From: Candidatus Moraniibacteriota bacterium | Lineage (GTDB): Bacteria; Patescibacteriota; Minisyncoccia; Moranbacterales; UBA1568 | Assembly: GCA_028711705.1 (NCBI GenBank) | Contig: JAQTRS010000003.1 | Location: 109,966-173,965, forward strand | Length of the DNA stretch: 64,000 nt | Direction: 5' to 3' | Shown here: positions 19,677 to 31,345 of the stretch, in pieces | Layout of the letters: each line of letters opens with the position of its first letter | Numbering within the stretch: position 1 is the stretch's first letter | Translations under genes and position numbers: made by a program | Notes under the pieces: generated by a model | Databases searched by the model: none | Told to the model about the DNA's origin: nothing | What the model saw: the letters and a program-made list of their open reading frames with translations, nothing else

Positions 19677-19748
19677 CGGGGTATAGTATAGTGGTAGTAC
19701 GAGTGGTTTGGGACCATTTAGTCTCGGTTCGATTCCGAGTACCCCGAC
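19677..19748 (+). tRNA. tRNA-Pro (anticodon TGG)
   Basis: Acceptor CGGGGTA/TACCCCG; anticodon stem AGTGG/CCATT with loop TTTGGGA (anticodon TGG); T-arm CTCGG TTCGATT CCGAG; discriminator A. CCA is not encoded. Confidence 0.75.
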
Positions 19749-19757
19749 AGGGATGAG

Positions 19758-19788
19758 GACCGCGGCATATGCCGCGGTCTTTTGTTTT
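19758..19788 (+). terminator. rho-independent terminator after tRNA-Pro
   Basis: Perfect hairpin gaccgcggcatatgccgcggtc, followed by ttttgtttt. Confidence 0.7.
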
Positions 19789-19794
19789 ACGGGT

Positions 19795-19890
19795 GGAGCG
19801 AGCGGAGGCGGAGTGCTTTTTCAAGACCGTGGTGTACTCACGGAGGTCATGAAAAAGCACTCCGCCCCCCGCTCTGTATTTTCAGCAGCG
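19795..19890 (+). other. long structured element (about 95 nt extended hairpin with a 17-bp perfect stem), function unknown
   Basis: ggcggagtgctttttca pairs perfectly with tgaaaaagcactccgcc. An outer gagcg/cgctc extension and an apical sub-hairpin gaccgtg...cacggaggtc complete the structure. Confidence 0.3.
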
Positions 19891-19928
19891 CGTCGAATGA
19901 GGTTGGGCACTGGCGGGGACGTTTTTAT

Positions 19929-19957
19929 TTGCCTAATGGAAGAATGTTGCCTATAAT
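19929..19957 (+). promoter_or_regulatory. sigma70 promoter (TTGCCT - 17 - TATAAT) upstream of FNR-like gene
   Basis: ttgcct at 19929-19934 and tataat at 19952-19957, with a 17-bp spacer. Confidence 0.45.
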
Positions 19958-20029
19958 GGTTATAATTACATATTCACGGAGGTGAGGATGTCAAGATGTT
20001 ATAAATAAGGCAGTATCGAACATTTCAGA

Positions 20030-20749
20030 ATGATGCAAACATACACTATCAAACTTATCGGGAAACAAGAGATCGCCGATCAGACCGTGGCGTTCGTGTT
20101 CGAGAAGCCGCAAGATTTCACGTTTCAGGCAGGGCAATATGTCGTCATGACGTTGCCGAAGCTTGCATTTCCCGATAATCGTCGCGGCATACGTTCGCTT
20201 TCTATCGCTTCCGCCCCGTATGAGGATACGCTTATGTTCGCGATGCGCATCACCGATAGCGGTTTCAAACAGACGCTCAATACGATGGAAATCGGCGACG
20301 AAGCGACCATTACCAAGGCCATCGGGCATTTCGTCTTGGATGAAAGCGAACGCCCCGTCGTGTTTTTGATCGGCGGTATCGGTATCACCCCCGCGCGCAG
20401 CATTCTCCGTCAGGCAGTGCGGGATGGATCAAAACGCCGCTTCTGTCTTTTCTATTCCAATAGGCGCCCCCAGGACGCCTCTTTTGCGAGTGAGCTCCAG
20501 GAATTTCCGACGCTAGATTATCACTGTGTCGATACGCTCACCAATCAGGATGCTGCCGATCGATGCGAATGGCAGGAAGAGCGGGGGTATATCTGCGACC
20601 ATATGCTGGAAAAATATCTCGACGATCCCAAAAGCCCGCAGTATTATGTCGTCGGTTCACCTGTTTTCGCCAATGCTATGATAGCGATGCTTACCGGGAT
20701 GGGGGTTGAAAAGGAATCTATCAAACAAGATCCGTTTACCGGCATTTAG
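20030..20749 (+). CDS. FNR-like FAD/NAD(P)-binding oxidoreductase domain protein (stand-alone)
   Basis: FAD-binding RxxS motif (RSLSIAS) and NAD(P)-binding GGIGITP motif of the ferredoxin-NADP reductase family. 239 aa, with no ferredoxin/2Fe-2S partner domain. Confidence 0.7.
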   Translation: MMQTYTIKLIGKQEIADQTVAFVFEKPQDFTFQAGQYVVMTLPKLAFPDNRRGIRSLSIASAPYEDTLMFAMRITDSGFKQTLNTMEIGDEATITKAIGHFVLDESERPVVFLIGGIGITPARSILRQAVRDGSKRRFCLFYSNRRPQDASFASELQEFPTLDYHCVDTLTNQDAADRCEWQEERGYICDHMLEKYLDDPKSPQYYVVGSPVFANAMIAMLTGMGVEKESIKQDPFTGI

Positions 20750-20809
20750 TATGGTGATAGTGCTGCCCCGTCGCACTTTGGGTCGCATGTAAAATAAATA
20801 TACAATCAT

Positions 20810-22351
20810 ATGGGGATACGGAGTAAGTTTTTCGTCGTTATAGGGCCGCTGATGATCGTTGTGGTCCTATTTATCTACAGCGTCATTTCCGGACGTTTCC
20901 TGGACCAGTTTTCGGATATCGAATTGGACCTTGCAAAGCAGAATGTCGATCGGGCGCTTAATGCTATCGACGGGTTGCTCGAGGATGTCAATACGAAGAG
21001 TTCCGATTGGGCGCAGTGGGATGATTCCTATGCGTTCATGCAGGATCATAATCAGGAGTATTGGCAATCCAATCTGAGCAATGATTCTATTTTGGATGGC
21101 ATGAAGCTTTCCGTTATGGTGTTTGTCGACAGATCCGGCCATGTGGTCGCCACCAAAAACGCACTTGATGCGGATAGCGATTCCGACGCAGTGCCCCAAG
21201 ATATCCTCGATGCGCTTCTTGATGGTAGATTCGTCAATTACGATGATGGTGCGGCGTTTCACAAGGGCATTGTGCATATCGGCGACATCGTGCTTCTCGT
21301 AGCTTCGCGGCCCATCATGCGTACGGATGGCACGGGTCCGGCAGCGGGTACGATCATATTCGCGCGCACGGTTGATGATGCTTTGATAAGAGAGATTTCG
21401 GATCGTATCCATTTGCCTTTGAAACTGTATGCTTCTACGGAGGTGTTGCCGCTTGAGGCGTGGCAGAAAGAAGTGCTTGCGGATGAGGGGAGAAAGGAGA
21501 GTGTCGATGTGGCTCATGTCGAGGGTGACATTGTGGCGGCATATGGGGCCGTGCACGATGTGTCTGGCGGGCACACCATCTTTACCCGCATAGAGATACC
21601 GCGGACGATATACCGTCACGGACAGGGTTTTGTGCGTTCCTTCAGTATTTTTTTCGGGGTGGCCTTTGTTATTTTTTCTATCACATTGATGCTTCTTTTG
21701 GAGTGGCTCGTTTTCGCCCCTATCTCCCGATTGAGCGCCGACGTGGACCGTATACGTTCAGGCGACGACGATGCGATGCGTATCAAGGTGACGGGGAATG
21801 ACCAATTCTCCCATTTGAGCGAAACCATCAATCAGATGATTGACGGCCTCTACAGGATGCGCCAGCAGAAAGAGGAGAGTGAGAGTCGCTTCCAGACGGT
21901 AGCCGACCTGGCTCCCGTGATGATTTGGATGTCCGGTGCCGATAAGCAATACTCCTATTTCAATAAGGGATGGCTCGATTTTACCGGAAGATCGGCTGAT
22001 GAAGAGCTCGGTAACGGTTGGGCAAAAGGCGTGCATCCGGATGATATCGATCAGCGTACGGCGGTCTATTCCAAAGCGTTCGATGCGAGGGAATCATTCC
22101 GCATGGAATACCGATTGAGGAATACTTCGGGCGAGTACCGATGGGTTTTGGATAGCGGCATACCGAATTTCGCTCCTGACGGAACCTTTTTGGGCTATCT
22201 TGGATCATGTATCGATATCACGGAACGAAGGATGGCGGAAGAGTCGAATACCAAGCGTATCAAAGAGATGGAAACCCTCAACAAGATGATGGTGAGCCGC
22301 GAATTGAAGATGATAGAGCTCAAAAAGGAATTGCAGCGGCTGAAGCAATAA
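20810..22351 (+). CDS. membrane sensor protein (extracytoplasmic sensing domain - TM - HAMP - PAS), no output domain
   Basis: N-terminal TM, a periplasmic sensing domain of about 250 aa, a second TM, a HAMP-like linker and a PAS domain (MIWMSGADKQYSYFNKGWLDFTGRS...YRWVLDSG), ending in a coiled coil. No kinase or GGDEF domain. Confidence 0.6.
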   Translation: MGIRSKFFVVIGPLMIVVVLFIYSVISGRFLDQFSDIELDLAKQNVDRALNAIDGLLEDVNTKSSDWAQWDDSYAFMQDHNQEYWQSNLSNDSILDGMKLSVMVFVDRSGHVVATKNALDADSDSDAVPQDILDALLDGRFVNYDDGAAFHKGIVHIGDIVLLVASRPIMRTDGTGPAAGTIIFARTVDDALIREISDRIHLPLKLYASTEVLPLEAWQKEVLADEGRKESVDVAHVEGDIVAAYGAVHDVSGGHTIFTRIEIPRTIYRHGQGFVRSFSIFFGVAFVIFSITLMLLLEWLVFAPISRLSADVDRIRSGDDDAMRIKVTGNDQFSHLSETINQMIDGLYRMRQQKEESESRFQTVADLAPVMIWMSGADKQYSYFNKGWLDFTGRSADEELGNGWAKGVHPDDIDQRTAVYSKAFDARESFRMEYRLRNTSGEYRWVLDSGIPNFAPDGTFLGYLGSCIDITERRMAEESNTKRIKEMETLNKMMVSRELKMIELKKELQRLKQ

Positions 22352-22405
22352 TCAAAGAGATGCGGAAGTTTCGACCGTATCTCACGGGCTGATCGTTTTA
22401 AAAAT

Positions 22406-24778
22406 ATGAGCATGGAATCAACCCGACTGCCCATCGTGAGCCGAAGGGAAGTCGCTAACGACGTTTTCGAGGTTTCTTTCGGCCTTTCTAGAGCGGATTT
22501 TCATTTTCAGGCAGGCCAATATATCCGGGTGGTTATCCCGCATCTTTCGTATCCCGATGGGCGGGGGAATTTTCGCGATTTCTTCATCAGTTCATCGCCT
22601 AACAATCACGAGCATATTTCTATAGCCTTCAGAAATACGGGGAGCGGTTTCAAAAAGACGCTGCTTGAATTGCCTCTCGGGTCATCGGTGGTCGTGCGTG
22701 GGGCATATGGTCTGCTCGAGCTGCCTCAAGAGCATCATCAGGGCCTGGTATTCATCGCCTTCGGTATCGGTATTACCCCCTTTCTGAGCATGATTCGCCT
22801 TGCAGCCGAGCGGGGATATGCAGGGTACCTGACGCTTATCTGCGTGCATGATGACATAGATTCGGTGCCCTATCTTGATGAGTTGAAGCAACTTCAGGAA
22901 AAAATACCCCGTTTCATCCTGAGGCAGAAAAGGGCTCCTTTGGACGAGGAATTCTTGCGTATACAAACGACGCATTCCAAAGAGTCTTTGTGGTATATTT
23001 CCGGTCCGCCCGATCTGGCACGTGAGGCTTTCGATATGCTCTGCGGCCTCGGGGTGCCTTTGGGAAATATCGTTTCTGAGGAGATGCTGGGTTATGGCGA
23101 GGGGGTGCCTGTGACATCTTCCGCAGCGGCCCAGCCGTTGCCAACTGTAGGCAGTTCGCCGAATGACCATGCGTTTTTCTTGGATGCCAAGAAATTGCGG
23201 TCCATCATCGAAACCAGCGCCGAGGGCGTGGTTATCACCAATCCCGATGGACTCATCTTGTATGTCAATGCCGAGTGGCAGAACATTACCGGTTGGAAAA
23301 GCGACGATGTCGTGGGCAAGATGACGCCCCGCATCCTCAAATCGGGAAAAACCAGACCGGAGGAATACGAGAAGCTGTGGAAAACCATCAGGCGCGGCGA
23401 GATAGCTCATATCGACATTATCAATAAGCGCAAAAATGGCAATCTGTACTATGCCGAGGATATCATACTGCCCCTCAAGAACGATCAGGGTGAGGTAACG
23501 GAGTTCGTCGGCTTCCAGCGAGACGTTTCGGAGAAGCAGCGCTATATGAAGCAATTCATACTGCACTCCGAAGAGCTGGCTGAGCAGAACAAGTTCCTTG
23601 AGAACACGAAAAAGGCGATGCTCAATCTGCTCGAGGATTCTCAGGAACTGGAAAAAAACCTGGAGCTCGAGAAGGCGGCTATCAAGAAGGAAAAAGAGAA
23701 GTCGGAAGGCATTTTGCAGTTCCTGAAATCCATCGGTGATGGCGTGCTCGCTGTTGATCTGGATTCGAATATTATCTTTATGAACAAGATGGCGGAGAAT
23801 CTGTCTGGATACACGTTCGAGGAGGTACAAGGCAAATACTATACCGACGCCCTGCATTTCATCCTGGAAAAAAACCCCGATGTCTCCTACCCGCGCTTCG
23901 TCGAGCAGGTGATAAAGACGGGCGTGATCAATAAGCTGCCGAGCCACACCTCTTTGGTGAGGCGGGATGGTAGCATCGTTCCCGTGTCGGACAGCGCGGC
24001 GCCGATTCGTGATGCTTCGGGGGTTATTGTCGGTTGCATCATCGTATTCCAAGATGATACCAAGAAGCGCGAATTGGATCAGATGAAGGATGGTTTCATT
24101 TCGGTGGCGGCGCATCAGCTTCGGACGCCGCTGGGGGGTATGCGATGGAATATGGAGCTGCTGCTTTCCGAGGATGTCGGGGAACTTCCTGAGCAGGTGC
24201 GCGTCGAGCTTGAACAGCTCTACGAAAACAGCCAGCGCATGGTGACGCTGGTCAATGATCTTCTCAACACCTCGCGTATCGACAATGAGGTTTCCAGGGT
24301 GAAATACGAATCCGAATCCGCGGATATCATCACCCTGCTTCAGAAAGTGATACACGAGGTTGCCGATGAGGCGAAAAAACGTGCGGTGACCATACGATTC
24401 GCCAATGAAGGAACCTTCGATTCGGTCCGTATCGTTCCGAAAAATATATACGAAGCCTTCCAGAATCTGATCGTCAATGCCGTGAAGTACAGCGATGCGG
24501 GGGACACGGTGACGGTCGGGGTGGAGCAGCACAAAGAGGCTATGCGTGTCACGATCGAGGATACGGGAATCGGTATTCCGAAAGATCAGCAATTGAAGCT
24601 ATTCTCGAAGTTTTTCCGCGCTTCCAATGCTATCCTCAAGGAGACGGACGGCAGCGGCCTAGGGCTGAGCGTCGCGAAGTTTTTTATCGAAGAGAATGGG
24701 GGGCGGATCCTTTTCGAGAGCGAGGAGGGAAAGGGGACGACTTTTTATGTTGATTTGCCCCTGGCGGCGAAAAAGTGA
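22406..24778 (+). CDS. hybrid FNR-like flavoprotein domain - PAS - PAS - histidine kinase
   Basis: N-terminal 230 aa are paralogous to the 20030 protein (FQAGQYIRVV, RDFFISSSP, FGIGITP). These are followed by two PAS domains, a HisKA H-box (VAAHQLRTPLGGMRW) and HATPase_c (GSGLGLSVAKFF). Confidence 0.75.
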   Translation: MSMESTRLPIVSRREVANDVFEVSFGLSRADFHFQAGQYIRVVIPHLSYPDGRGNFRDFFISSSPNNHEHISIAFRNTGSGFKKTLLELPLGSSVVVRGAYGLLELPQEHHQGLVFIAFGIGITPFLSMIRLAAERGYAGYLTLICVHDDIDSVPYLDELKQLQEKIPRFILRQKRAPLDEEFLRIQTTHSKESLWYISGPPDLAREAFDMLCGLGVPLGNIVSEEMLGYGEGVPVTSSAAAQPLPTVGSSPNDHAFFLDAKKLRSIIETSAEGVVITNPDGLILYVNAEWQNITGWKSDDVVGKMTPRILKSGKTRPEEYEKLWKTIRRGEIAHIDIINKRKNGNLYYAEDIILPLKNDQGEVTEFVGFQRDVSEKQRYMKQFILHSEELAEQNKFLENTKKAMLNLLEDSQELEKNLELEKAAIKKEKEKSEGILQFLKSIGDGVLAVDLDSNIIFMNKMAENLSGYTFEEVQGKYYTDALHFILEKNPDVSYPRFVEQVIKTGVINKLPSHTSLVRRDGSIVPVSDSAAPIRDASGVIVGCIIVFQDDTKKRELDQMKDGFISVAAHQLRTPLGGMRWNMELLLSEDVGELPEQVRVELEQLYENSQRMVTLVNDLLNTSRIDNEVSRVKYESESADIITLLQKVIHEVADEAKKRAVTIRFANEGTFDSVRIVPKNIYEAFQNLIVNAVKYSDAGDTVTVGVEQHKEAMRVTIEDTGIGIPKDQQLKLFSKFFRASNAILKETDGSGLGLSVAKFFIEENGGRILFESEEGKGTTFYVDLPLAAKK

Positions 24779-25002
24779 CAAAAAAAGCGCTTTCCTGTAC
24801 ACTTGAGATGAGCTGGCGGCGCCAGATGCCGCATATTCACAAGCATATAAGAAATAGCCTATTTAAAGAATACGGGTATTTTTTATTGTGCGGCGTATCT
24901 GGGCAGTATGTTTGGTCGGAGCATTCTTTTGGATGTGTCGTTCGCGCATATGCCAGCGAGTTCGTTAACAATGTAGTATTTGAAACTTAGGTGGAGATAA
25001 CG

Positions 25003-26280
25003 ATGAGCAATGATAATTTTTATGAGCGTTTCGAGAATTTTCAATCTGATGTGAACCAGAAAAACGCGCTTGGAGGTGTTTTTTCTGTGACGGGATCTTC
25101 GCTTGGAGCGGAGGTTTCCATTAACATCGATGGGAATACGATGCCAGTAACGTCGTATATGAGCTTGGATTATTTGGGAATGGGTCAGGAGCCTGCCGTG
25201 ATAGAGAATTGTATACGTAATATCCGATCATTAGGTACCGGGTTTGCGAGTTCAAGAACGGTGATGGAATCTTCTCAGCATCAGGCTCTGGAGAATGCCC
25301 TTGCCGATTTTAAGCGGATGAAATCTTGCTTGCTTGTCAATACCGGCTATTTGGCGAATGTTATACTCCCGCAACTGATATTCGACGACGTCATAGTGAC
25401 GGGAGGCTATAAGTTGCGTCGACCCCGTAAGAAAACCGTGGTATGTATGGACAGATTGACGCATGCATCTCTTCTTTCTACGTTGGCGACAATGAAAGGA
25501 AAGCGGGTGGTTGATAATGTGAAGAAGTATGATCACTTGGATTATGACTCCCTTCAGTCGATGTTGGATGAATATAAAAGCGATGATGTTCAGAAATTTA
25601 TCTTTACCGACAGCTTGTTTTCTATGGGAGGAGATTTTGCGAATGTGCGCCTATTGCTTGATTTTGCGAAGCATTATGATGCCATATTGGTTATCGATAA
25701 TGCGCATGCGGATGGCGTGTATGGTGCTGAAGGCAGAGGATACCTGGAAGCGCAGGGAATAACGAGTCAGGATGATCTGAAATATATCATCCAGACAGGC
25801 ACCTTAAGCAAGGCCATATGCGCTCTGGGCGGACATATCACATTCCCGTCATCGAGCCCTGTGGATCTGGCAAAGTTTTCCCAGTGGGAATTCATTTTTT
25901 CTGTGGCCATACCGACCTTTCTCGCGGCGACATGCGTTCATTCCATCAGGCTTATTCGTGGGGATATGGGTGATAAGAAGCGAGAACAGCTTCATATTCT
26001 TTCAGCTATCTTGCGATCGCGATTGCAGGAGAGAGGATTTAATATCTTGCGATCGACATCGCATATTATCCCCATTGTGATCGGAACGGCAGATACATGC
26101 CTTGCTGTTCATGATTATTTATTAAGAGAACACCGTATATGGATCGGGCCGATCCGATGGCCGGCCGTATCTGAAAACGGGGCGCTCCTGCGATGCGCTG
26201 TCACTGCGAATCATAGCGAGGAAAATATCGGCGAACTTATCGAGGCATTGGAGAAGGCGAGAAATCAATTCAGTTTTTAG
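25003..26280 (+). CDS. alpha-oxoamine synthase family PLP-dependent acyltransferase (CqsA/LqsA/BioF/KBL/SPT family)
   Basis: RBS aggtgg, then ATG at 25003. AOS-family fold with PLP-lysine motif GTLSKAICALGGH, and DNAHADGVYG and SLFSMGGD motifs. Confidence 0.8.
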   Translation: MSNDNFYERFENFQSDVNQKNALGGVFSVTGSSLGAEVSINIDGNTMPVTSYMSLDYLGMGQEPAVIENCIRNIRSLGTGFASSRTVMESSQHQALENALADFKRMKSCLLVNTGYLANVILPQLIFDDVIVTGGYKLRRPRKKTVVCMDRLTHASLLSTLATMKGKRVVDNVKKYDHLDYDSLQSMLDEYKSDDVQKFIFTDSLFSMGGDFANVRLLLDFAKHYDAILVIDNAHADGVYGAEGRGYLEAQGITSQDDLKYIIQTGTLSKAICALGGHITFPSSSPVDLAKFSQWEFIFSVAIPTFLAATCVHSIRLIRGDMGDKKREQLHILSAILRSRLQERGFNILRSTSHIIPIVIGTADTCLAVHDYLLREHRIWIGPIRWPAVSENGALLRCAVTANHSEENIGELIEALEKARNQFSF

Positions 26281-26339
26281 ATTTCGAAGCATGGTGTTAT
26301 GTGTTACAATTCAATACATAATACCATGCCTTTTTATTT

Positions 26340-27977
26340 ATGATGCAGATTATTTTTGGAGCCGCTGCTTTGAATTTTTTGGTGGGAGTCCTTCTTCTCA
26401 TCCAGAGGCGGCGTACGAAGGAAATAATCGCTTTCGGTGTCTTCTCTTTGATAACCGGCGTTTGGGGTCTATCGAATTTTCTTATTTACTATTACAACAG
26501 CGGCGTGTTTTTGGAGTCGGCCTATGCCTTCGGTGCCCTTACGGCGTCTTCGATGTTGGCCTGGTCATTTTTATATAAGCAAGGGTCGAATCGCACGAAC
26601 GTGGCGATTTTTATATATGCCTTGGGCATACTCATTTTCTGCCTTTCTTACGTCAATGGGTATGCTATTGGTGATATTCGTGGTATCACGGCAAGCGGCG
26701 TCGATGCCGATCCAGGATTATTTTCCGACGAGTATTCACTCTTTGTACTGGTGTCGCTGCTCTGGTCCTTGGCGAACGTGTTTTCGGTGTTCAGGAAATC
26801 TATCGGTTTTGAGCGGAAGCAGGCCCGATTGGTATTGGTTGGTCTGTTCGTATTCGTCGGAGTGACCATTATCGTGAGCGCTATCTTGCCGATTTTCGGT
26901 ATTTTGGGGTATACCAATCTCGACAGCCCGAGTTCTTTGATTTTCGTCATCTTCGTGGCATTCGCTATCGTGCGGTATCACTTCTTGGAGACACGGGTGA
27001 TTCTCGCGCAGGTGTTGGTGGGTGCTTTGGCTACCGTGTCGATCATCCAGCTTCTGAGTTCGACGACCGTGTTTGATGTGGTCATTACGATGATATCGCT
27101 TTGTATCGTCTTGGGTTTGGGGATATTTCTTGTACGGAGCGTGTTTAATGATATCCAGCACAAGAACGAGCTGCAGCGGGTGAATGTGCAGCTCAAGCGG
27201 AGCAAGCAGCGCTTGGGACAGGTAAACGAGCACCTAATGCAGCTCGATCAGGCCAAAACGGACTTTATCAATATCGCTTCCCATCAGCTCCGCACGCCTT
27301 TGGGAAGTATGCGTTGGAGCATGGAGATGATTCTTGCGGATGAGATGGGACCGATATCGGATTCAGCCAAGGATGCGCTCCGGGAGATATATGAGAATAA
27401 TCAGCGTATGGGCGATCTGGTGAATGATTTGTTGAGCGTGGCTCGCATCGAGCAGGGCAAGGTTGTGGAAAAAGCCGTAGCGACGGATATCGCGTCCGTT
27501 ATCAGCGAGGCGGTCAAGATGATGCAGCCCGAGGCGAAGCACAGGCAGATCACATTGCGATTCGATATGCCGACCAAGGATATCCCATCGATCATGGTGG
27601 CGCCGAAACGCTTTTTTGAGGTGATTCAAAACCTTATTTCCAACGCGATTAAGTACAATCGCCCAGAGGGAATGGTGATCGTCGCGATGGAAGTATCGAC
27701 ACGGCATATGCGCATTAGCGTGACGGACACAGGCATCGGTATCCCTCAATCGGAGCATGCTAAGATATTTTCGAAGTTTTTCCGTGCCGGGAACGCCTTA
27801 TCCACGAATACCGAAGGCACGGGACTGGGTCTGTTCGTGGCGAAGTCCTTTGTGGAGGAGAATGGCGGTATCATACGCTTCAAAAGCGAGGAGGGTGTGG
27901 GAACCACGTTCATTATCGAGTTGCCGATAACGGTGCCGACCGCGCAAGAGGATCAGCGCCAGGGCGAAGCGCGGTGA
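26340..27977 (+). CDS. sensor histidine kinase with N-terminal 7-8 TM domain
   Basis: About 250 aa of consecutive TM helices, then a HisKA H-box (IASHQLRTPLGSMRW) and HATPase_c (GTGLGLFVAKSF). There is no periplasmic domain and no receiver. Confidence 0.8.
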   Translation: MMQIIFGAAALNFLVGVLLLIQRRRTKEIIAFGVFSLITGVWGLSNFLIYYYNSGVFLESAYAFGALTASSMLAWSFLYKQGSNRTNVAIFIYALGILIFCLSYVNGYAIGDIRGITASGVDADPGLFSDEYSLFVLVSLLWSLANVFSVFRKSIGFERKQARLVLVGLFVFVGVTIIVSAILPIFGILGYTNLDSPSSLIFVIFVAFAIVRYHFLETRVILAQVLVGALATVSIIQLLSSTTVFDVVITMISLCIVLGLGIFLVRSVFNDIQHKNELQRVNVQLKRSKQRLGQVNEHLMQLDQAKTDFINIASHQLRTPLGSMRWSMEMILADEMGPISDSAKDALREIYENNQRMGDLVNDLLSVARIEQGKVVEKAVATDIASVISEAVKMMQPEAKHRQITLRFDMPTKDIPSIMVAPKRFFEVIQNLISNAIKYNRPEGMVIVAMEVSTRHMRISVTDTGIGIPQSEHAKIFSKFFRAGNALSTNTEGTGLGLFVAKSFVEENGGIIRFKSEEGVGTTFIIELPITVPTAQEDQRQGEAR

Positions 27978-28459: not shown

Positions 28460-30175
28460 ATGCCAGAACAACAACCATCGGAAGAACTTATACCGGACGA
28501 GGTACTGTACCAGTTATTGCTTGAGACAGGATCGGTACCGCAGGCATCGCTTGATGTCGCCGCGCAGCGTGCTAAGGAGGAGCATACTTCTTTGTATGAG
28601 GCTATTTTATGGCATGATTTCGTGTCCGATGAGAAACTCTGCCGATTGGCGGCCGATTTTTTGCAGATGCCCTTCGTGCTGCTTGCGGGAATCGCCATCG
28701 AGGAAGATGTCTTGCGAACGATTCCGGAAGTGGTTGCCAAGAAAAACGCCATCATCGTTTTTCGGAAAGATACGGATGGCTTGCATATCGCGACCAAGCA
28801 GCCAGATAATGTTCAGATTATCGATTTTATACGAAGAAAGACAGGGATGTCCGTTACAGTGTATCTTTCGATGTCCCAAGATATAGCGAACGCACTCCTT
28901 TTATACGGAAAAAATATCACCAAAGCATTTGACGATATTATACACGAGAGTCTACTTGATGCGAAAGGGTCGTCGAGCGATCAGAATGCGTTGCCTATCA
29001 TCAAGATAGTAGACAATATCCTCTCGTATGCGTATCAGAACAAGTCCTCTGACGTGCATATCGAACCGCGAGAAGAAGGGTCTTTGGTGCGCTTTCGTAT
29101 CGATGGCATCTTGCATGATATCGTTACGCTTCCGCTTGAGATCCATCCGCAGATCGTGTCGCGCATAAAAGTGCTAGCAAAGCTCCGTACGGATGAACAT
29201 CAGGCGCCTCATGATGGCAAGATCCGTTTTGAATCGGAGGGTGAAGCTTTGGACATCCGTGTGTCGGTGGTGCCGGTAACGGAAGGGGAGAAAATAGTGA
29301 TGCGCCTCCTCTCGGAGCGTTCGCGTCAGTTTTCTTTGTCCAATCTCGGTTTCGGATCGAGCGATTTGGCTAAGGTGAACGAAGCCTATAACAAGCCATA
29401 CGGAACTATCCTGGTTACCGGACCGACCGGTTGTGGAAAGACTACTACGTTGTACTCCATATTGAAGCTTCTTAATAATCGCAAGGTGAATATAATGACC
29501 ATCGAGGATCCGGTGGAATATGATATGGAAGGCGTCAATCAGATTCAGGTGAATACTAAGGCGAATCTTACGTTTGCGACCGGATTGCGGAGTATTCTCC
29601 GTCAGGATCCCAACATCATTTTGGTGGGTGAAATACGTGACAAAGAAACGGCTGGTATCGCGATCAATCTGGCTATGACCGGACACCTCGTACTTTCTAC
29701 GCTGCACACCAATGATTCGGCGACAGCGGTTCCTCGTATGATCGATATGGATATCGAACCATTCCTACTCTCTTCGACTATCAATGTCATTGTCGCCCAG
29801 CGTCTCGTGAGAAAGATTCATGATGCTTGCCGTGTCAGCGAAGAGGTTTCTATTGAAGATCTGAACCAACGCTTGGGAGCTGCGCTCGTACATGAAGTAT
29901 TCGGTGATGCGAGCGAGTCTGGCAAAAGTGTGCGTCTGTACAGAGGAAAAGGATGCGATTTGTGCCATCAGACAGGATATCAGGGGCGCATCGGCGTGTT
30001 TGAGGTTATGACTATTGATGATAAGTTGCGCACCGCTATCACGAATCGCAAGGATGCGGCGACTATTGCCGATATCGCTATCGCTTCCGGGATGACGACG
30101 ATGCTTGAGGATGGTTTGGAGAAGGTAAAGCAAGGGATAACGACTTTGGATGAGGTGTTGAGGGTTATCAAATAG
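28460..30175 (+). CDS. pilB: type IV pilus assembly ATPase PilB (GspE family)
   Basis: N-terminal GspII_E domain, Walker A GPTGCGKTTT, His box, Walker B/Asp box and a tetracysteine-like motif (CDLCHQTG). 571 aa. Confidence 0.9.
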   Translation: MPEQQPSEELIPDEVLYQLLLETGSVPQASLDVAAQRAKEEHTSLYEAILWHDFVSDEKLCRLAADFLQMPFVLLAGIAIEEDVLRTIPEVVAKKNAIIVFRKDTDGLHIATKQPDNVQIIDFIRRKTGMSVTVYLSMSQDIANALLLYGKNITKAFDDIIHESLLDAKGSSSDQNALPIIKIVDNILSYAYQNKSSDVHIEPREEGSLVRFRIDGILHDIVTLPLEIHPQIVSRIKVLAKLRTDEHQAPHDGKIRFESEGEALDIRVSVVPVTEGEKIVMRLLSERSRQFSLSNLGFGSSDLAKVNEAYNKPYGTILVTGPTGCGKTTTLYSILKLLNNRKVNIMTIEDPVEYDMEGVNQIQVNTKANLTFATGLRSILRQDPNIILVGEIRDKETAGIAINLAMTGHLVLSTLHTNDSATAVPRMIDMDIEPFLLSSTINVIVAQRLVRKIHDACRVSEEVSIEDLNQRLGAALVHEVFGDASESGKSVRLYRGKGCDLCHQTGYQGRIGVFEVMTIDDKLRTAITNRKDAATIADIAIASGMTTMLEDGLEKVKQGITTLDEVLRVIK

Positions 30176-30286
30176 CAGCCGAAATGTTTAGCTTTCGATC
30201 GACGGGCGATCGAGTCCGTTTGTGGATTGTGTGATATGATGCATCGGACCGGTATTGAGAGGAGTTTCATTTTTTAACGCATATGT

Positions 30287-31345
30287 ATGACTCTTTTTTC
30301 GCGGGCGAGTTTTTTGGATATCTTGTTGTTTACAAAACACCTTTCGGTGATGGTAAAGAGCGGCATTACAGTAGCCGAGTCAGTCAAATCCCTCAAGCAT
30401 CAGGCGAAAACAGGCGCTTTCAAAAGGATTCTCGATCAAGTATCGGCCGACATCGAAAACGGCGATCCTCTCGCGAAGGCACTTGCGAAGTATCCTCAGG
30501 CTTTCAGTCATTTCTATATCAATCTTATCGCTATCGGTGAAGAGTCGGGAGTGCTTCAGGAGAATTTGGATTTCCTGTCCAAGCAGTTGAGCAAGGAATA
30601 CGCGCTTCGAAAGAAAGTACAGGGCGTGCTCCTGTATCCGGCGATCGTGCTGACGGCCGCCTTTGTGATCAGCGCCCTGGTGAGCATCTTCGTTTTGCCG
30701 AAACTTGTGAATCTTTTTGAGTCTTTCGATGTCGTTTTGCCGTTATCGACGCGTATCCTCCTATCCATCGCTCATGTCATGCAATCGCATGGAGTGATCA
30801 TATTCGTAACGATTCTTGCGGCGAGCATTTTTTTTCGGGTTTTGGCTTTCGTGCCACAGATCAGAAAATGGTATCACTGGTTATTTTTGAGTATGCCGAT
30901 TATCGGGCCATTCCTGCGAAATGTATACATTTCTTCCTCGTGTCGTGATTTGGGAATGATGCTTCAGGCGGGATTATCGATCACTCGTGCGCTGCGAGTG
31001 GAGTATGACACGATAAACAATCTCGTATTCAAGGAATATGTGAAGAGTTTGCAACTTTCTATAGCAAGGGGCGGGACTTTGTCGGGCGAATTATTGACGG
31101 GGAATTTTTCGAAGATACCGCCTTTGGTTTCGAAAATGATTGAGGTCGGAGAAGGGACCGGAAAACTCGAAGAATCGCTTCTATATCTGGGGGATTTCTT
31201 CGAAGAGGAGATTGATAATACATCGAAGAATTTTTCCACTGTTTTGGAACCGATCTTGCTTTTATGTATCGGATTGGTGGTCGCATTTGTCGCGTTGGCG
31301 ATCATATCGCCGATTTATTCATTGACGGGATCTGTCCATAGGTAA
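30287..31345 (+). CDS. pilC: type IV pilus inner-membrane platform protein PilC (GspF family)
   Basis: Two GspF-type repeats and three TM segments. 352 aa. Confidence 0.85.
   Translation: MTLFSRASFLDILLFTKHLSVMVKSGITVAESVKSLKHQAKTGAFKRILDQVSADIENGDPLAKALAKYPQAFSHFYINLIAIGEESGVLQENLDFLSKQLSKEYALRKKVQGVLLYPAIVLTAAFVISALVSIFVLPKLVNLFESFDVVLPLSTRILLSIAHVMQSHGVIIFVTILAASIFFRVLAFVPQIRKWYHWLFLSMPIIGPFLRNVYISSSCRDLGMMLQAGLSITRALRVEYDTINNLVFKEYVKSLQLSIARGGTLSGELLTGNFSKIPPLVSKMIEVGEGTGKLEESLLYLGDFFEEEIDNTSKNFSTVLEPILLLCIGLVVAFVALAIISPIYSLTGSVHR

Follow-up and report, generated by a model that had tools for sequence, protein, structure and literature searches.

Candidate split sensor kinase of Candidatus Moranbacteria, with a transmitter-less CHASE4 sensor and an FNR-like input module

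This analysis concerns three consecutive genes in a 64,000-nucleotide (nt) stretch of a Candidatus Moranbacteria genome (Candidate Phyla Radiation, CPR, also known as Patescibacteria), which we refer to throughout as the window. All three lie on the + strand, where a first-pass annotation of the same DNA had placed them and where a check of the open reading frames (ORFs) found them again, and they encode a stand-alone protein of 239 amino acids (aa) resembling ferredoxin-NADP reductases (FNR; 20030-20749), a membrane sensor of 513 aa (20810-22351) and a histidine kinase (HK) of 790 aa that itself begins with an FNR-like module (22406-24778). We think that the second and third of these genes most likely form one split sensor kinase. 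The membrane protein would sense outside the cell via its CHASE4 domain, pass the signal through HAMP and PAS domains and end, instead of in a kinase, in a conserved stretch of about 40 residues that we call the RELKMIELK tail; the third gene would supply a soluble kinase, in which an FNR-fold input module is tethered by a flexible linker of about 30 residues to a flavin-type PAS domain, with another PAS domain and an ordinary HisKA/HATPase transmitter behind it. The tail probably couples the membrane sensor to the kinase non-covalently, and the kinase would then phosphorylate a regulator that consists only of a receiver (REC) domain and adjoins type IV pilus genes, the first gene presumably being an unrelated, conserved enzyme of a housekeeping block that merely neighbours the other two. 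For this explanation as a whole, with its REC-only and pilus output, we put the chances at about even. Domain content, fold, family distribution, residue substitutions, synteny, tail distribution and module permutations were all established directly, and the main interest lies in a recurrent FNR-like to flavin-PAS input combined with a conserved tail that marks sensors lacking a transmitter. Comparison loci and contigs carry the label L (L002/L003 is the orthologous locus, L088 a separate assembly) and homologous proteins the label P.

The two proposed partners are built as follows (TM, transmembrane segment; pLDDT, predicted local distance difference test).

20810..22351, +: membrane sensor, 513 aa; TM1 aa 8-26, CHASE4 aa 55-207, TM2 aa 279-297, HAMP aa 300-347, PAS aa 360-474, then the tail (Pfam, hydrophobic segments)
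22232..22348, +: C-terminal tail helix, aa 475-513; invariant core RELKMIELK at 22298-22324 (aa 497-505), with 8 aa between it and the stop
22349..22405, +: junction, one TAA and a further 54 nt; the CHASE4 and kinase ORFs share a frame, and the gene boundary is real
22406..22720, +: FAD-binding lobe, kinase aa 1-105; R57 and F59 kept, F60 for Ser (codon 22583-22585)
22721..23095, +: NAD(P)H-binding lobe, kinase aa 106-230; GIGITP kept, with G119F (22760-22762), Y146C (22841-22843) and N148H (22847-22849)
23096..23191, +: flexible linker from the FNR-like module to PAS1, aa 231-262; pLDDT under 50 starting at aa 228; 25% identical to the ortholog
23192..23545, +: PAS1, aa 263-380, flavin-binding PAS type by its sequence; pocket positions T278, P308, R309, W325, N340 and Q371
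23546..23710, +: inter-PAS segment, aa 381-435; coiled coil predicted from sequence only, 71% identity to the ortholog, shorter in P0402
23711..24073, +: PAS2, aa 436-556 (Pfam)
24086..24766, +: transmitter, HisKA aa 561-628 and HATPase_c aa 678-787; the H-box is AAHQLRTP (His at aa 570), and the N, G1 and G2 boxes are present

The kinase and its FNR-like input

Pfam recognises two PAS domains, HisKA (3e-15) and HATPase_c (3e-26) in the 790-aa protein, and the AAHQLRTP, NAVKYS, DTGIGI and GSGLGL motifs of a HisKA-type kinase are all present. Its N-terminus is sub-threshold for Pfam NAD_binding_1 (19 bits against a cut-off of 22), and it is matched by FNR-type modules of NCBIfam (MmoC, BenC and Hmp, at 1e-13 to 1e-11) and, in sequence searches of the Protein Data Bank (PDB), by BenC reductase (2.8e-11) and the SpNOX dehydrogenase domain (2.6e-8). 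An AlphaFold2 (AF2) model of this N-terminal module, with a pLDDT of 90.5, joins a beta-barrel FAD lobe to a Rossmann-like NAD(P)H lobe, and the top 50 Foldseek hits are all of the FNR fold (E about 7e-18 to 5e-15, template-modelling scores of 0.70-0.84). Domain searches, together with the model and the Foldseek search on the kinase module, thus agree that both the 239-aa protein and the kinase N-terminus have the FNR fold first read from their sequences, and the prospect that these regions would turn out to be a non-flavin fold has disappeared. Equally, domain searches detected no Fe-S domain (a 2Fe-2S partner included) and no flavodoxin domain in either protein, as the annotation had said, and neither has PF01794 or a credible TM segment of the kind that would mark a NOX or ferric-reductase domain; the only hydrophobic stretch of the kinase (aa 114-132) is accounted for by the buried strand-helix that bears its nucleotide-binding motif.

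Comparison with solved and classified relatives places the modules without naming their activity, all NCBIfam FNR-type scores being far below the family cut-offs, so that no function can be assigned by homology. Among the listed Foldseek hits, it is the dehydrogenase domain of SpNOX (8qq1/8qq7) that has the highest target-normalised score against the kinase module (0.84, at 24% identity), but the TM haem domain of SpNOX and ferric-reductase proteins is absent from both window proteins, and the kinase module sits on a PAS-HK instead. The two-lobe FAD_binding_6/NAD_binding_1 fold and its motifs are common to the window modules and to BenC, MmoC, Hmp and Fre/LuxG, and the 239-aa protein resembles a minimal, Fre-like two-lobe enzyme with no Fe-S, globin or other partner domain.

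The fusion of this module to a kinase is real. The junction near 23100 is a low-confidence linker of about 30 aa within one intact ORF; L088 is identical over 19721-23483, which spans both the stop between the CHASE4 and kinase genes and the FNR-to-PAS junction; and the ortholog, too, is fused, in a locus (L002/L003) with the same gene order of HU, stand-alone FNR-like protein, CHASE4-PAS and FNR-PAS-PAS-HK, in which RNase Y is 91% and the kinase 58% identical to the window's. This removes the concern that a frameshift near 23100 had hidden a separate gene. In an exhaustive search with kinase residues 1-385, in which the top 150 cluster representatives (50% clustering) were inspected, at least 68 start with an FNR-like module followed by PAS, and HisKA and HATPase_c are found in 54 of 69 such proteins, the window's included. 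The members with a named taxon are all from CPR bacteria (Patescibacteria group, Paceibacterota, Vogel-, Wolfe- and Harrisonbacteria), and those with names are annotated only as 'PAS domain' protein. The fusion is a family trait of CPR bacteria and not a one-off, so the view that such an input on a PAS-PAS-HK is unusual holds in that the architecture is real, conserved and passed over in annotation, but not in the sense that it is unique, given a family of at least 68 representatives. We found no description of the FNR-PAS-HK architecture in the literature, which is weak evidence with most subscription journals outside the search, and a scan of species genomes for fused relatives, which gave among the matches listed only stand-alone or TM-fused FNR-like proteins and unrelated PAS genes, is uninformative on fusion.

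Next comes the domain to which this input is tethered. Judged by its best PDB matches, which are 3ewk (MmoS PAS-A, 2.5e-17), a LOV HK and 2gj3 (NifL PAS1, 3.7e-14), with phototropin and aureochrome LOV domains also among them, PAS1 is of the flavin-binding PAS type (the clade of MmoS, Aer, NifL and LOV), and this strengthens the earlier idea of flavin-based or redox sensing. The FAD-pocket residues of MmoS named in a paper on Aer (PMC9668731), T103, H132, N164 and R195, correspond in a HMMER alignment to positions 278, 308, 340 and 371 of the window PAS1. Across the fused family (n=68), about 30-34 PAS1 domains have the full T/H/N/R set, 14 have Pro and Gln as in the window and 19 have Pro and Glu; flavin binding is plausible for the family because about half of its PAS1 domains have this pocket. 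The window PAS1 also keeps R309 and W325, and the Thr, R309, W325 and Asn positions are nearly invariant across the fused family.

Two well-known sensors are helpful here as points of comparison. MmoS of Methylococcus capsulatus, whose PAS-A is the best solved match to PAS1, is like the window kinase a multi-PAS histidine kinase, and it has its T/H/N/R pocket in common with that half of the fused family, whereas in the window the His and Arg of that set are Pro and Gln. What has been solved of MmoS (3ewk, 227 aa) consists of two PAS domains only and, to our knowledge, full-length MmoS has no FNR-like module. NifL of Azotobacter vinelandii, whose PAS1 (2gj3) is homologous at the E value given above, acts on NifA and is not known to act as a kinase; in vitro, NADH reportedly reduces its FAD only via an added flavoprotein with an FNR module, and we know of no reductase fused to NifL itself. 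In the present family, the activity of that added flavoprotein is what a fused FNR module would supply. The class to which NifL PAS1 belongs has been reviewed as that of cytoplasmic flavin-PAS redox sensors (PMC12540587). For the wider family, in which the FNR motifs are intact, the most economical reading would be that the module is a reductase fused in place, driven by NAD(P)H, that either sets the redox state of the PAS flavin or reads it out. Much work has been done on flavin-PAS redox sensors such as MmoS and NifL, and the source of electrons for their flavin in the cell is debated; a natural fusion of an FNR module to a flavin-PAS, occurring in dozens of lineages, is a direct test object for that question.

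The sensor without a transmitter and its tail

The 513-aa protein has a CHASE4 domain (1e-31, 110 bits against a cut-off of 26.2) between two TM segments, followed by HAMP and PAS, and Pfam finds neither HisKA nor HATPase in it, which bears out its initial description as a membrane sensor lacking a transmitter. Its exact match on record is P0389, a 'CHASE4 domain-containing protein', and its architecture is shared with 14 homolog clusters. AF2 predicts a single helix for the C-terminal 42 residues (pLDDT 77-95), and in a single-sequence AF2 run on the HAMP-PAS-tail fragment (pLDDT 46.5 overall) the tail helix alone is confident. No Pfam model covers the tail, a PDB profile search of tail proteins matched only PAS, and we found no paper on it.

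The distribution of the tail is what draws attention to it. Every sensor-only membrane protein directly upstream of an FNR-PAS-HK ends in …M(V/I)xREL(K/R)M(I/V)ELKKE…, namely the CHASE4 proteins of the window and L002, a dCache_1-HAMP protein (L086), two HAMP proteins (L087) and a multi-TM protein (L084), and in five of six contexts the gene immediately before the FNR-kinase encodes such a sensor, with a tail and without a transmitter. Within the FNR-PAS family the tail and a transmitter never occur together, and 9-10 of about 14 kinase-less proteins end in the tail; likewise, all 14 transmitter-less homologs of the CHASE4 protein do so, against none of 104 other PAS-matching proteins. In a six-frame translation of 1.04 Mb the motif is found only in these genes, 8-17 residues from the stop. 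Scanning metagenome contigs with the core motif gave more than 600 stretches, and in the 80 loci kept (L092-L171) all 87 instances lie 8-54 residues from a stop. PAS is present in 63 of 83 tail proteins from these loci, alongside REC, HAMP, Cache, GAF, PocR and CHASE4, with no output domain in the tally, and of 44 genes that start within 120 nt downstream of a tail gene, 15-16 encode HisKA/HATPase kinases. We propose the name 'tail-terminated transmitter-less sensors' for proteins that have REL[KR]M[IV]ELK at most about 55 aa from the C-terminus and sensor domains only, with no output domain, a class into which the window sensor falls.

That sensor and kinase are partners is suggested by the usual gene-fusion logic, because the same modules occur fused or permuted elsewhere. 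The window and L002 have CHASE4-HAMP-PAS-tail plus FNR-PAS-PAS-HK; L172 has FNR-PAS-tail with a 4-nt overlap with TM-HAMP-PAS-HK; P0124 has FNR-TM-TM-HAMP-PAS-HK in one chain; and P0402 has CHASE4-HAMP-PAS-coil-PAS-HK in one chain, with neither tail nor FNR-like module. P0402, which is 41% identical to the window sensor and 44% identical (E 2e-137) to the window kinase from PAS1 to its end, represents the canonical CHASE4 membrane kinases and has the same module order, CHASE4-HAMP-PAS-…-HK; compared with it, the window chain is broken after the first PAS domain, the sensor has gained the tail helix, and the kinase has gained the FNR-like module and its linker. We infer that the tail is the best candidate for the contact between sensor and kinase. 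The idea that the tail is a remnant of the unsplit linker was considered and rejected, because P0402 lacks the motif at the corresponding position. The CHASE4 and kinase ORFs are in frame in the ortholog also (L002 7442-7456, TAA TGA plus 9 nt, a 12-nt gap), and this shared frame may be the trace of an ancestral single gene like P0402, or chance.

Taken together, the tail and the FNR-like input raise a broader and distinctly more tentative proposal, which we regard as possible but clearly less probable than the split kinase itself. In the first half of it, the helix …ELExFNxxxVGREL(K/R)M(I/V)ELKKE(I/V)xxL… would define a widespread, undescribed class of output-less sensors that plug non-covalently into separate kinases in a mix-and-match manner; in the second, the FNR-like to FAD-type-PAS unit would be a self-contained, NAD(P)H-driven redox input that ties the reducing power of CPR bacteria to the behaviour of their type IV pili. 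If the tail is such a coupling device, it would account for signal relay by many 'orphan' PAS, HAMP and Cache proteins that lack output domains. There is also an annotation gap to be filled, with proteins labelled only 'PAS domain protein' and a tail for which no family model exists. CPR bacteria have tiny genomes, live mostly attached to other microbes, depend on type IV pili and have signalling that is little known, and a CPR-wide kinase family adjoining pilus genes is a concrete lead on it.

Several further arrangements of tail genes deserve mention in their own right. Two tail-bearing genes stand in tandem in L095, L125, L130, L134 and L135, and one gene downstream of a tail gene is a KaiC homolog. 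In L001 (7262-8871), an FNR-PAS protein of 395 aa overlaps by 4 nt with a 141-aa PAS protein that ends in the tail, with no kinase near the pair in that locus, and this is perhaps one FNR-PAS-PAS-tail gene that was split, or else a sensor made by two genes.

The kinase's FNR-like site and the stand-alone gene

How much reductase is left in the window kinase? Of the 63 columns that 120 stand-alone homologs conserve at a level of at least 80%, its module keeps 53, among them R57, F59, the GSGFKKTL segment, GIGITP (G120-I-G-I-T-P125) and Y230, the residue with which the stand-alone relatives end. Six of the ten deviant columns (S60F, G119F, Y146C, N148H, G177A and F227M) hold a residue seen in none of the 120, and S60F, G119F, Y146C and N148H are absent from the 68 fused homologs as well. 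The first-pass annotation had both proteins carrying the FNR motifs, and RSLSIAS with GGIGITP in the one and RDFFISS with FGIGITP in the other are indeed present as written, but the kinase copy has Phe both for the conserved Ser and for a near-invariant Gly, replacements found in 0 of the 188 homologs together. The RxxS flavin motif thus reads RDFF, at a position where Ser occurs in 96% of the stand-alone and 62 of the 68 fused homologs and Phe in none, and alignment puts F60 opposite the Ser of BenC reductase ('RSYS') and of SpNOX ('HPFS', RxFS); the G-x-G-x-x-P motif is present, and directly before it F119 takes the place of the Gly of 92-93% of homologs. In the ortholog, S60, Y146 and N148 are unchanged, whereas Gly is replaced by Ser at 119 (G119S). 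Identity between window and ortholog runs at 62% for the FAD lobe, 34% for the NAD lobe, 25% for the linker and 69% for PAS1, then 71% for the coil, 69% for PAS2, 80% for the dimerisation and phosphotransfer domain and 53% for the ATPase, so that the NAD lobe is the least conserved folded domain of the kinase, and the simplest reading of these figures would be that constraint on the nucleotide lobe has been relaxed, or has changed, in this lineage.

In the FNR family, replacing this Ser cuts hydride transfer by orders of magnitude. Because the Ser and several residues of the NAD(P)H lobe are replaced and the lobe evolves fast, the window kinase module has probably lost hydride transfer and catalysis, and it may have been kept as an input that binds flavin or a ligand or plays a structural part, in other words as a pseudo-enzyme. 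Two alternatives lie to either side of this. The module might still be a working NAD(P)H- and flavin-binding domain with an unusual site (for example, a switched nucleotide preference) that senses the NAD(P)H/NAD(P)+ ratio directly, as its 53 retained columns, its confidently predicted fold, the 62% identity of its FAD lobe to the ortholog and an ORF intact in two assemblies would allow; we think this unlikely in the face of a Phe where BenC reductase and SpNOX have their RxYS/HPFS Ser, with the loss of rate that this implies in the family, of a second, bulky Phe ahead of GxGxxP and of a NAD lobe only 34% identical to the ortholog. At the other extreme, it might be a decaying relic without a role, the kinase being governed only by its PAS domains and its CHASE4 partner. 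The NAD lobe and linker are indeed its fastest-evolving parts, four family-invariant residues have been lost, and a natural relative, P0402, has no FNR module; yet some 230 codons are still open in a very small genome and are predicted to fold with the high confidence already given, the FAD lobe is as conserved as PAS1, and the module has been retained across a pair of orthologs only 58% identical, which leaves the relic as improbable as the working sensor.

The stand-alone gene tells a different story, and its features are these.

19929..19957, +: promoter-like site, TTGCCT-17-TATAAT, ahead of the gene for the stand-alone FNR-like protein; consensus match only
20030-20749, +: stand-alone FNR-family flavoprotein, 239 aa, with Pfam and NCBIfam domains; RSLS and GGIGITP intact

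Both Pfam lobes of the 239-aa protein are above threshold (NAD_binding_1 5e-15, 56.4 bits against 22; FAD_binding_6 1e-4, 22.7 bits against 21.1), and its exact match is P0269, 'FAD-dependent oxidoreductase [Candidatus Moranbacteria bacterium]'. It scores below the NCBIfam equivalogs for Fre (PRK08051, 58 bits against a cut-off of 230) and LuxG (36.6 bits against 340). It has a deep set of orthologs of about 238 aa with 50-82% identity, and it is 78% identical to its L002 ortholog, with the lobes equally conserved at 77-78% each. Its gene follows HU in a conserved Moranbacteria block of NusA, pyrophosphatase, trigger factor, ClpP, iPGM, RNase Y and HU, and the same post-HU position is held in L089 (81% identical) and in the complete genome L090 (51% identical), in both of which there is no sensor or kinase gene within 9 kb of it. 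Because the gene keeps this place also where sensor genes are lacking, it is the signalling genes that adjoin a housekeeping gene.

This bears on the proposal that the two FNR-like sequences are clear paralogs within a rearranged or duplicated sensory module, which is not supported. The 239-aa protein and the kinase module are 28% identical over 241 aa (E 1e-25), a likeness well above what chance would give, while the kinase module is 45-48% identical to another family, of stand-alone proteins of about 228 aa, a few of which are fused to ferric-reductase membrane domains (P0001, P0031, P0051). In a distance tree, the 239-aa protein falls within a pure clade of 40 orthologs of about 238 aa, and the kinase module pairs with its own ortholog in a fused clade interleaved with 228-aa forms. 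Local tandem duplication of the FNR module is therefore ruled out by the relative identities, by the tree and by synteny without sensors.

A role for the stand-alone enzyme in trans is another matter, and we keep it as a rival because co-transcription in this genome is conceivable. Here the intact enzyme at 20030 would work with the kinase and carry out the NAD(P)H-dependent reduction that the degenerate module has lost, the three genes forming one redox-sensing operon. They are co-oriented, with the promoter-like site before the first and no convincing terminator-like hairpin between that site and 24778, on which account they may be co-transcribed, although promoter-like sites in the window do not exceed their counts in shuffled controls. 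The adjacency of stand-alone FNR and CHASE4 sensor is conserved in L002/L003 and probably in five more relatives, judged only from homologs of both on contigs of equal size (7675, 12924, 8467, 12997 and 9520 nt), and the NAD lobe of the kinase is degenerate in exactly this lineage. Set against this are the sensor-free neighbourhoods of L089 and L090, the separate clade, the other members of the FNR-PAS family that have no such neighbour, and the housekeeping-like evolution of both lobes of the stand-alone protein, and we are accordingly doubtful of it, to much the same degree as of the two readings of the kinase module above. We continue to favour a split sensor kinase made of the second and third genes alone. 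As separate observations, the 9520-nt contig would, as its size suggests, hold the unsplit kinase P0402 beside a stand-alone FNR homolog; and in L089 (10289-12007), the stand-alone FNR ortholog and a 71-aa ORF are followed by an [FeFe]-hydrogenase-like protein (Fer2_4, Fer4, Fe_hyd_lg_C and Fe_hyd_SSU), a neighbour that was not seen in L090 or the window and that may hint at the redox partner of the stand-alone enzyme.

That frameshift, mis-assembly or read-through of the TAA has faked the fusion or the split is effectively refuted: the CHASE4 and kinase ORFs do share a frame with one TAA between them, and the exact 790-aa and 788-aa kinase products are not on record in the protein collection, unlike both upstream proteins, but L088 is identical across the region, in the ortholog the gene pair recurs and is separated by two stops in a row, the tail is C-terminal in all 14 CHASE4 homologs, and the FNR-to-PAS fusion recurs in 68 representatives.

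Downstream genes, output and the weight of the evidence

Beyond the kinase lie the following features.

24991..27977, +: lineage-specific insertion of two genes, for an enzyme of the alpha-oxoamine synthase family (24991-26280) and for a HisKA kinase with a polytopic membrane part (26340-27977); absent from L002/L003
28041..28442, +: response regulator consisting of REC only, 133 aa; probably receives phosphate from the FNR-kinase (Pfam, synteny)
28460..31345, +: type IV pilus genes, a PilB-like ATPase (MshEN + T2SSE, 28460-30175) and a PilC-like platform protein (30287-31345), then pilins; the probable target of the pathway

In L002, the REC-only regulator (80% identical) directly follows the kinase and is itself followed by PilB, PilC and pilins. 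REC-only genes also flank members of the FNR-PAS family in L084, L085 and L172, with pilus genes nearby in L084 and L172, and the output of the system is likely to be control of pili via the phosphorylated single-domain regulator. The '8-kb signalling island' that the first-pass annotation drew around these genes is, however, a composite, in which the aminotransferase-like enzyme and second kinase are a later insertion outside the conserved system, absent from the ortholog locus.

A number of observations weigh against our preferred explanation, a split sensor kinase with a redox input and a pilus output. Electron transfer, tail-kinase contact, the phosphotransfer partner and pilus output are all deductions, as is flavin binding, which for either FNR-like or PAS module is drawn from homology, and in the window PAS1 only T278 and N340 of the MmoS pocket are present, with P308 for His and Q371 for Arg, so that two of the four residues are absent. 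The nucleotide site may be altered rather than lost, an acidic residue (D149 in the window, E149 in the ortholog) standing at the strand end, and P0402 represents a system that has no FNR module at all. As for the tail, only about one-third of tail genes are followed by a recognisable kinase, an FNR-like domain is found in or next after tail proteins in 0 of 84 cases in the metagenome sample, whose loci were picked, from 600 stretches at most, for likeness to the window's tail, and because the tail is thus neither specific to FNR-kinases nor usually followed by a kinase, the kinase is no more than a candidate for its partner. Finally, two kinases stand upstream of the single REC gene in the window.

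The inserted pair merits a word of its own. Its kinase has about 7-9 hydrophobic segments, and a 17-bp terminator-like hairpin (26289-26329) separates it from the alpha-oxoamine synthase. The pairing of enzyme and kinase recalls autoinducer synthase/sensor pairs, and a CqsA/CqsS-like quorum-sensing pair was considered and found no support: BioF and ALAS models outscore the autoinducer-synthase model, all of them below cut-off, and the PDB hits of the enzyme to E 1e-20 comprise ALAS, AONS, KBL, SPT, cysteate-C-fatty acyltransferase and an AONS-like enzyme, with no CqsA.

Two broader features of the DNA may be added. The ortholog locus L002 has a G+C content of 39% against about 50% in the window, although housekeeping proteins are 80-94% identical, a large compositional shift among close relatives. 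Across the window (1-64000), GC skew is above zero in nearly every 2-kb bin, cumulative skew climbs almost steadily and the long ORFs are mostly on the + strand, a pattern that fits a window lying wholly on one replication arm, with its genes co-oriented with replication.

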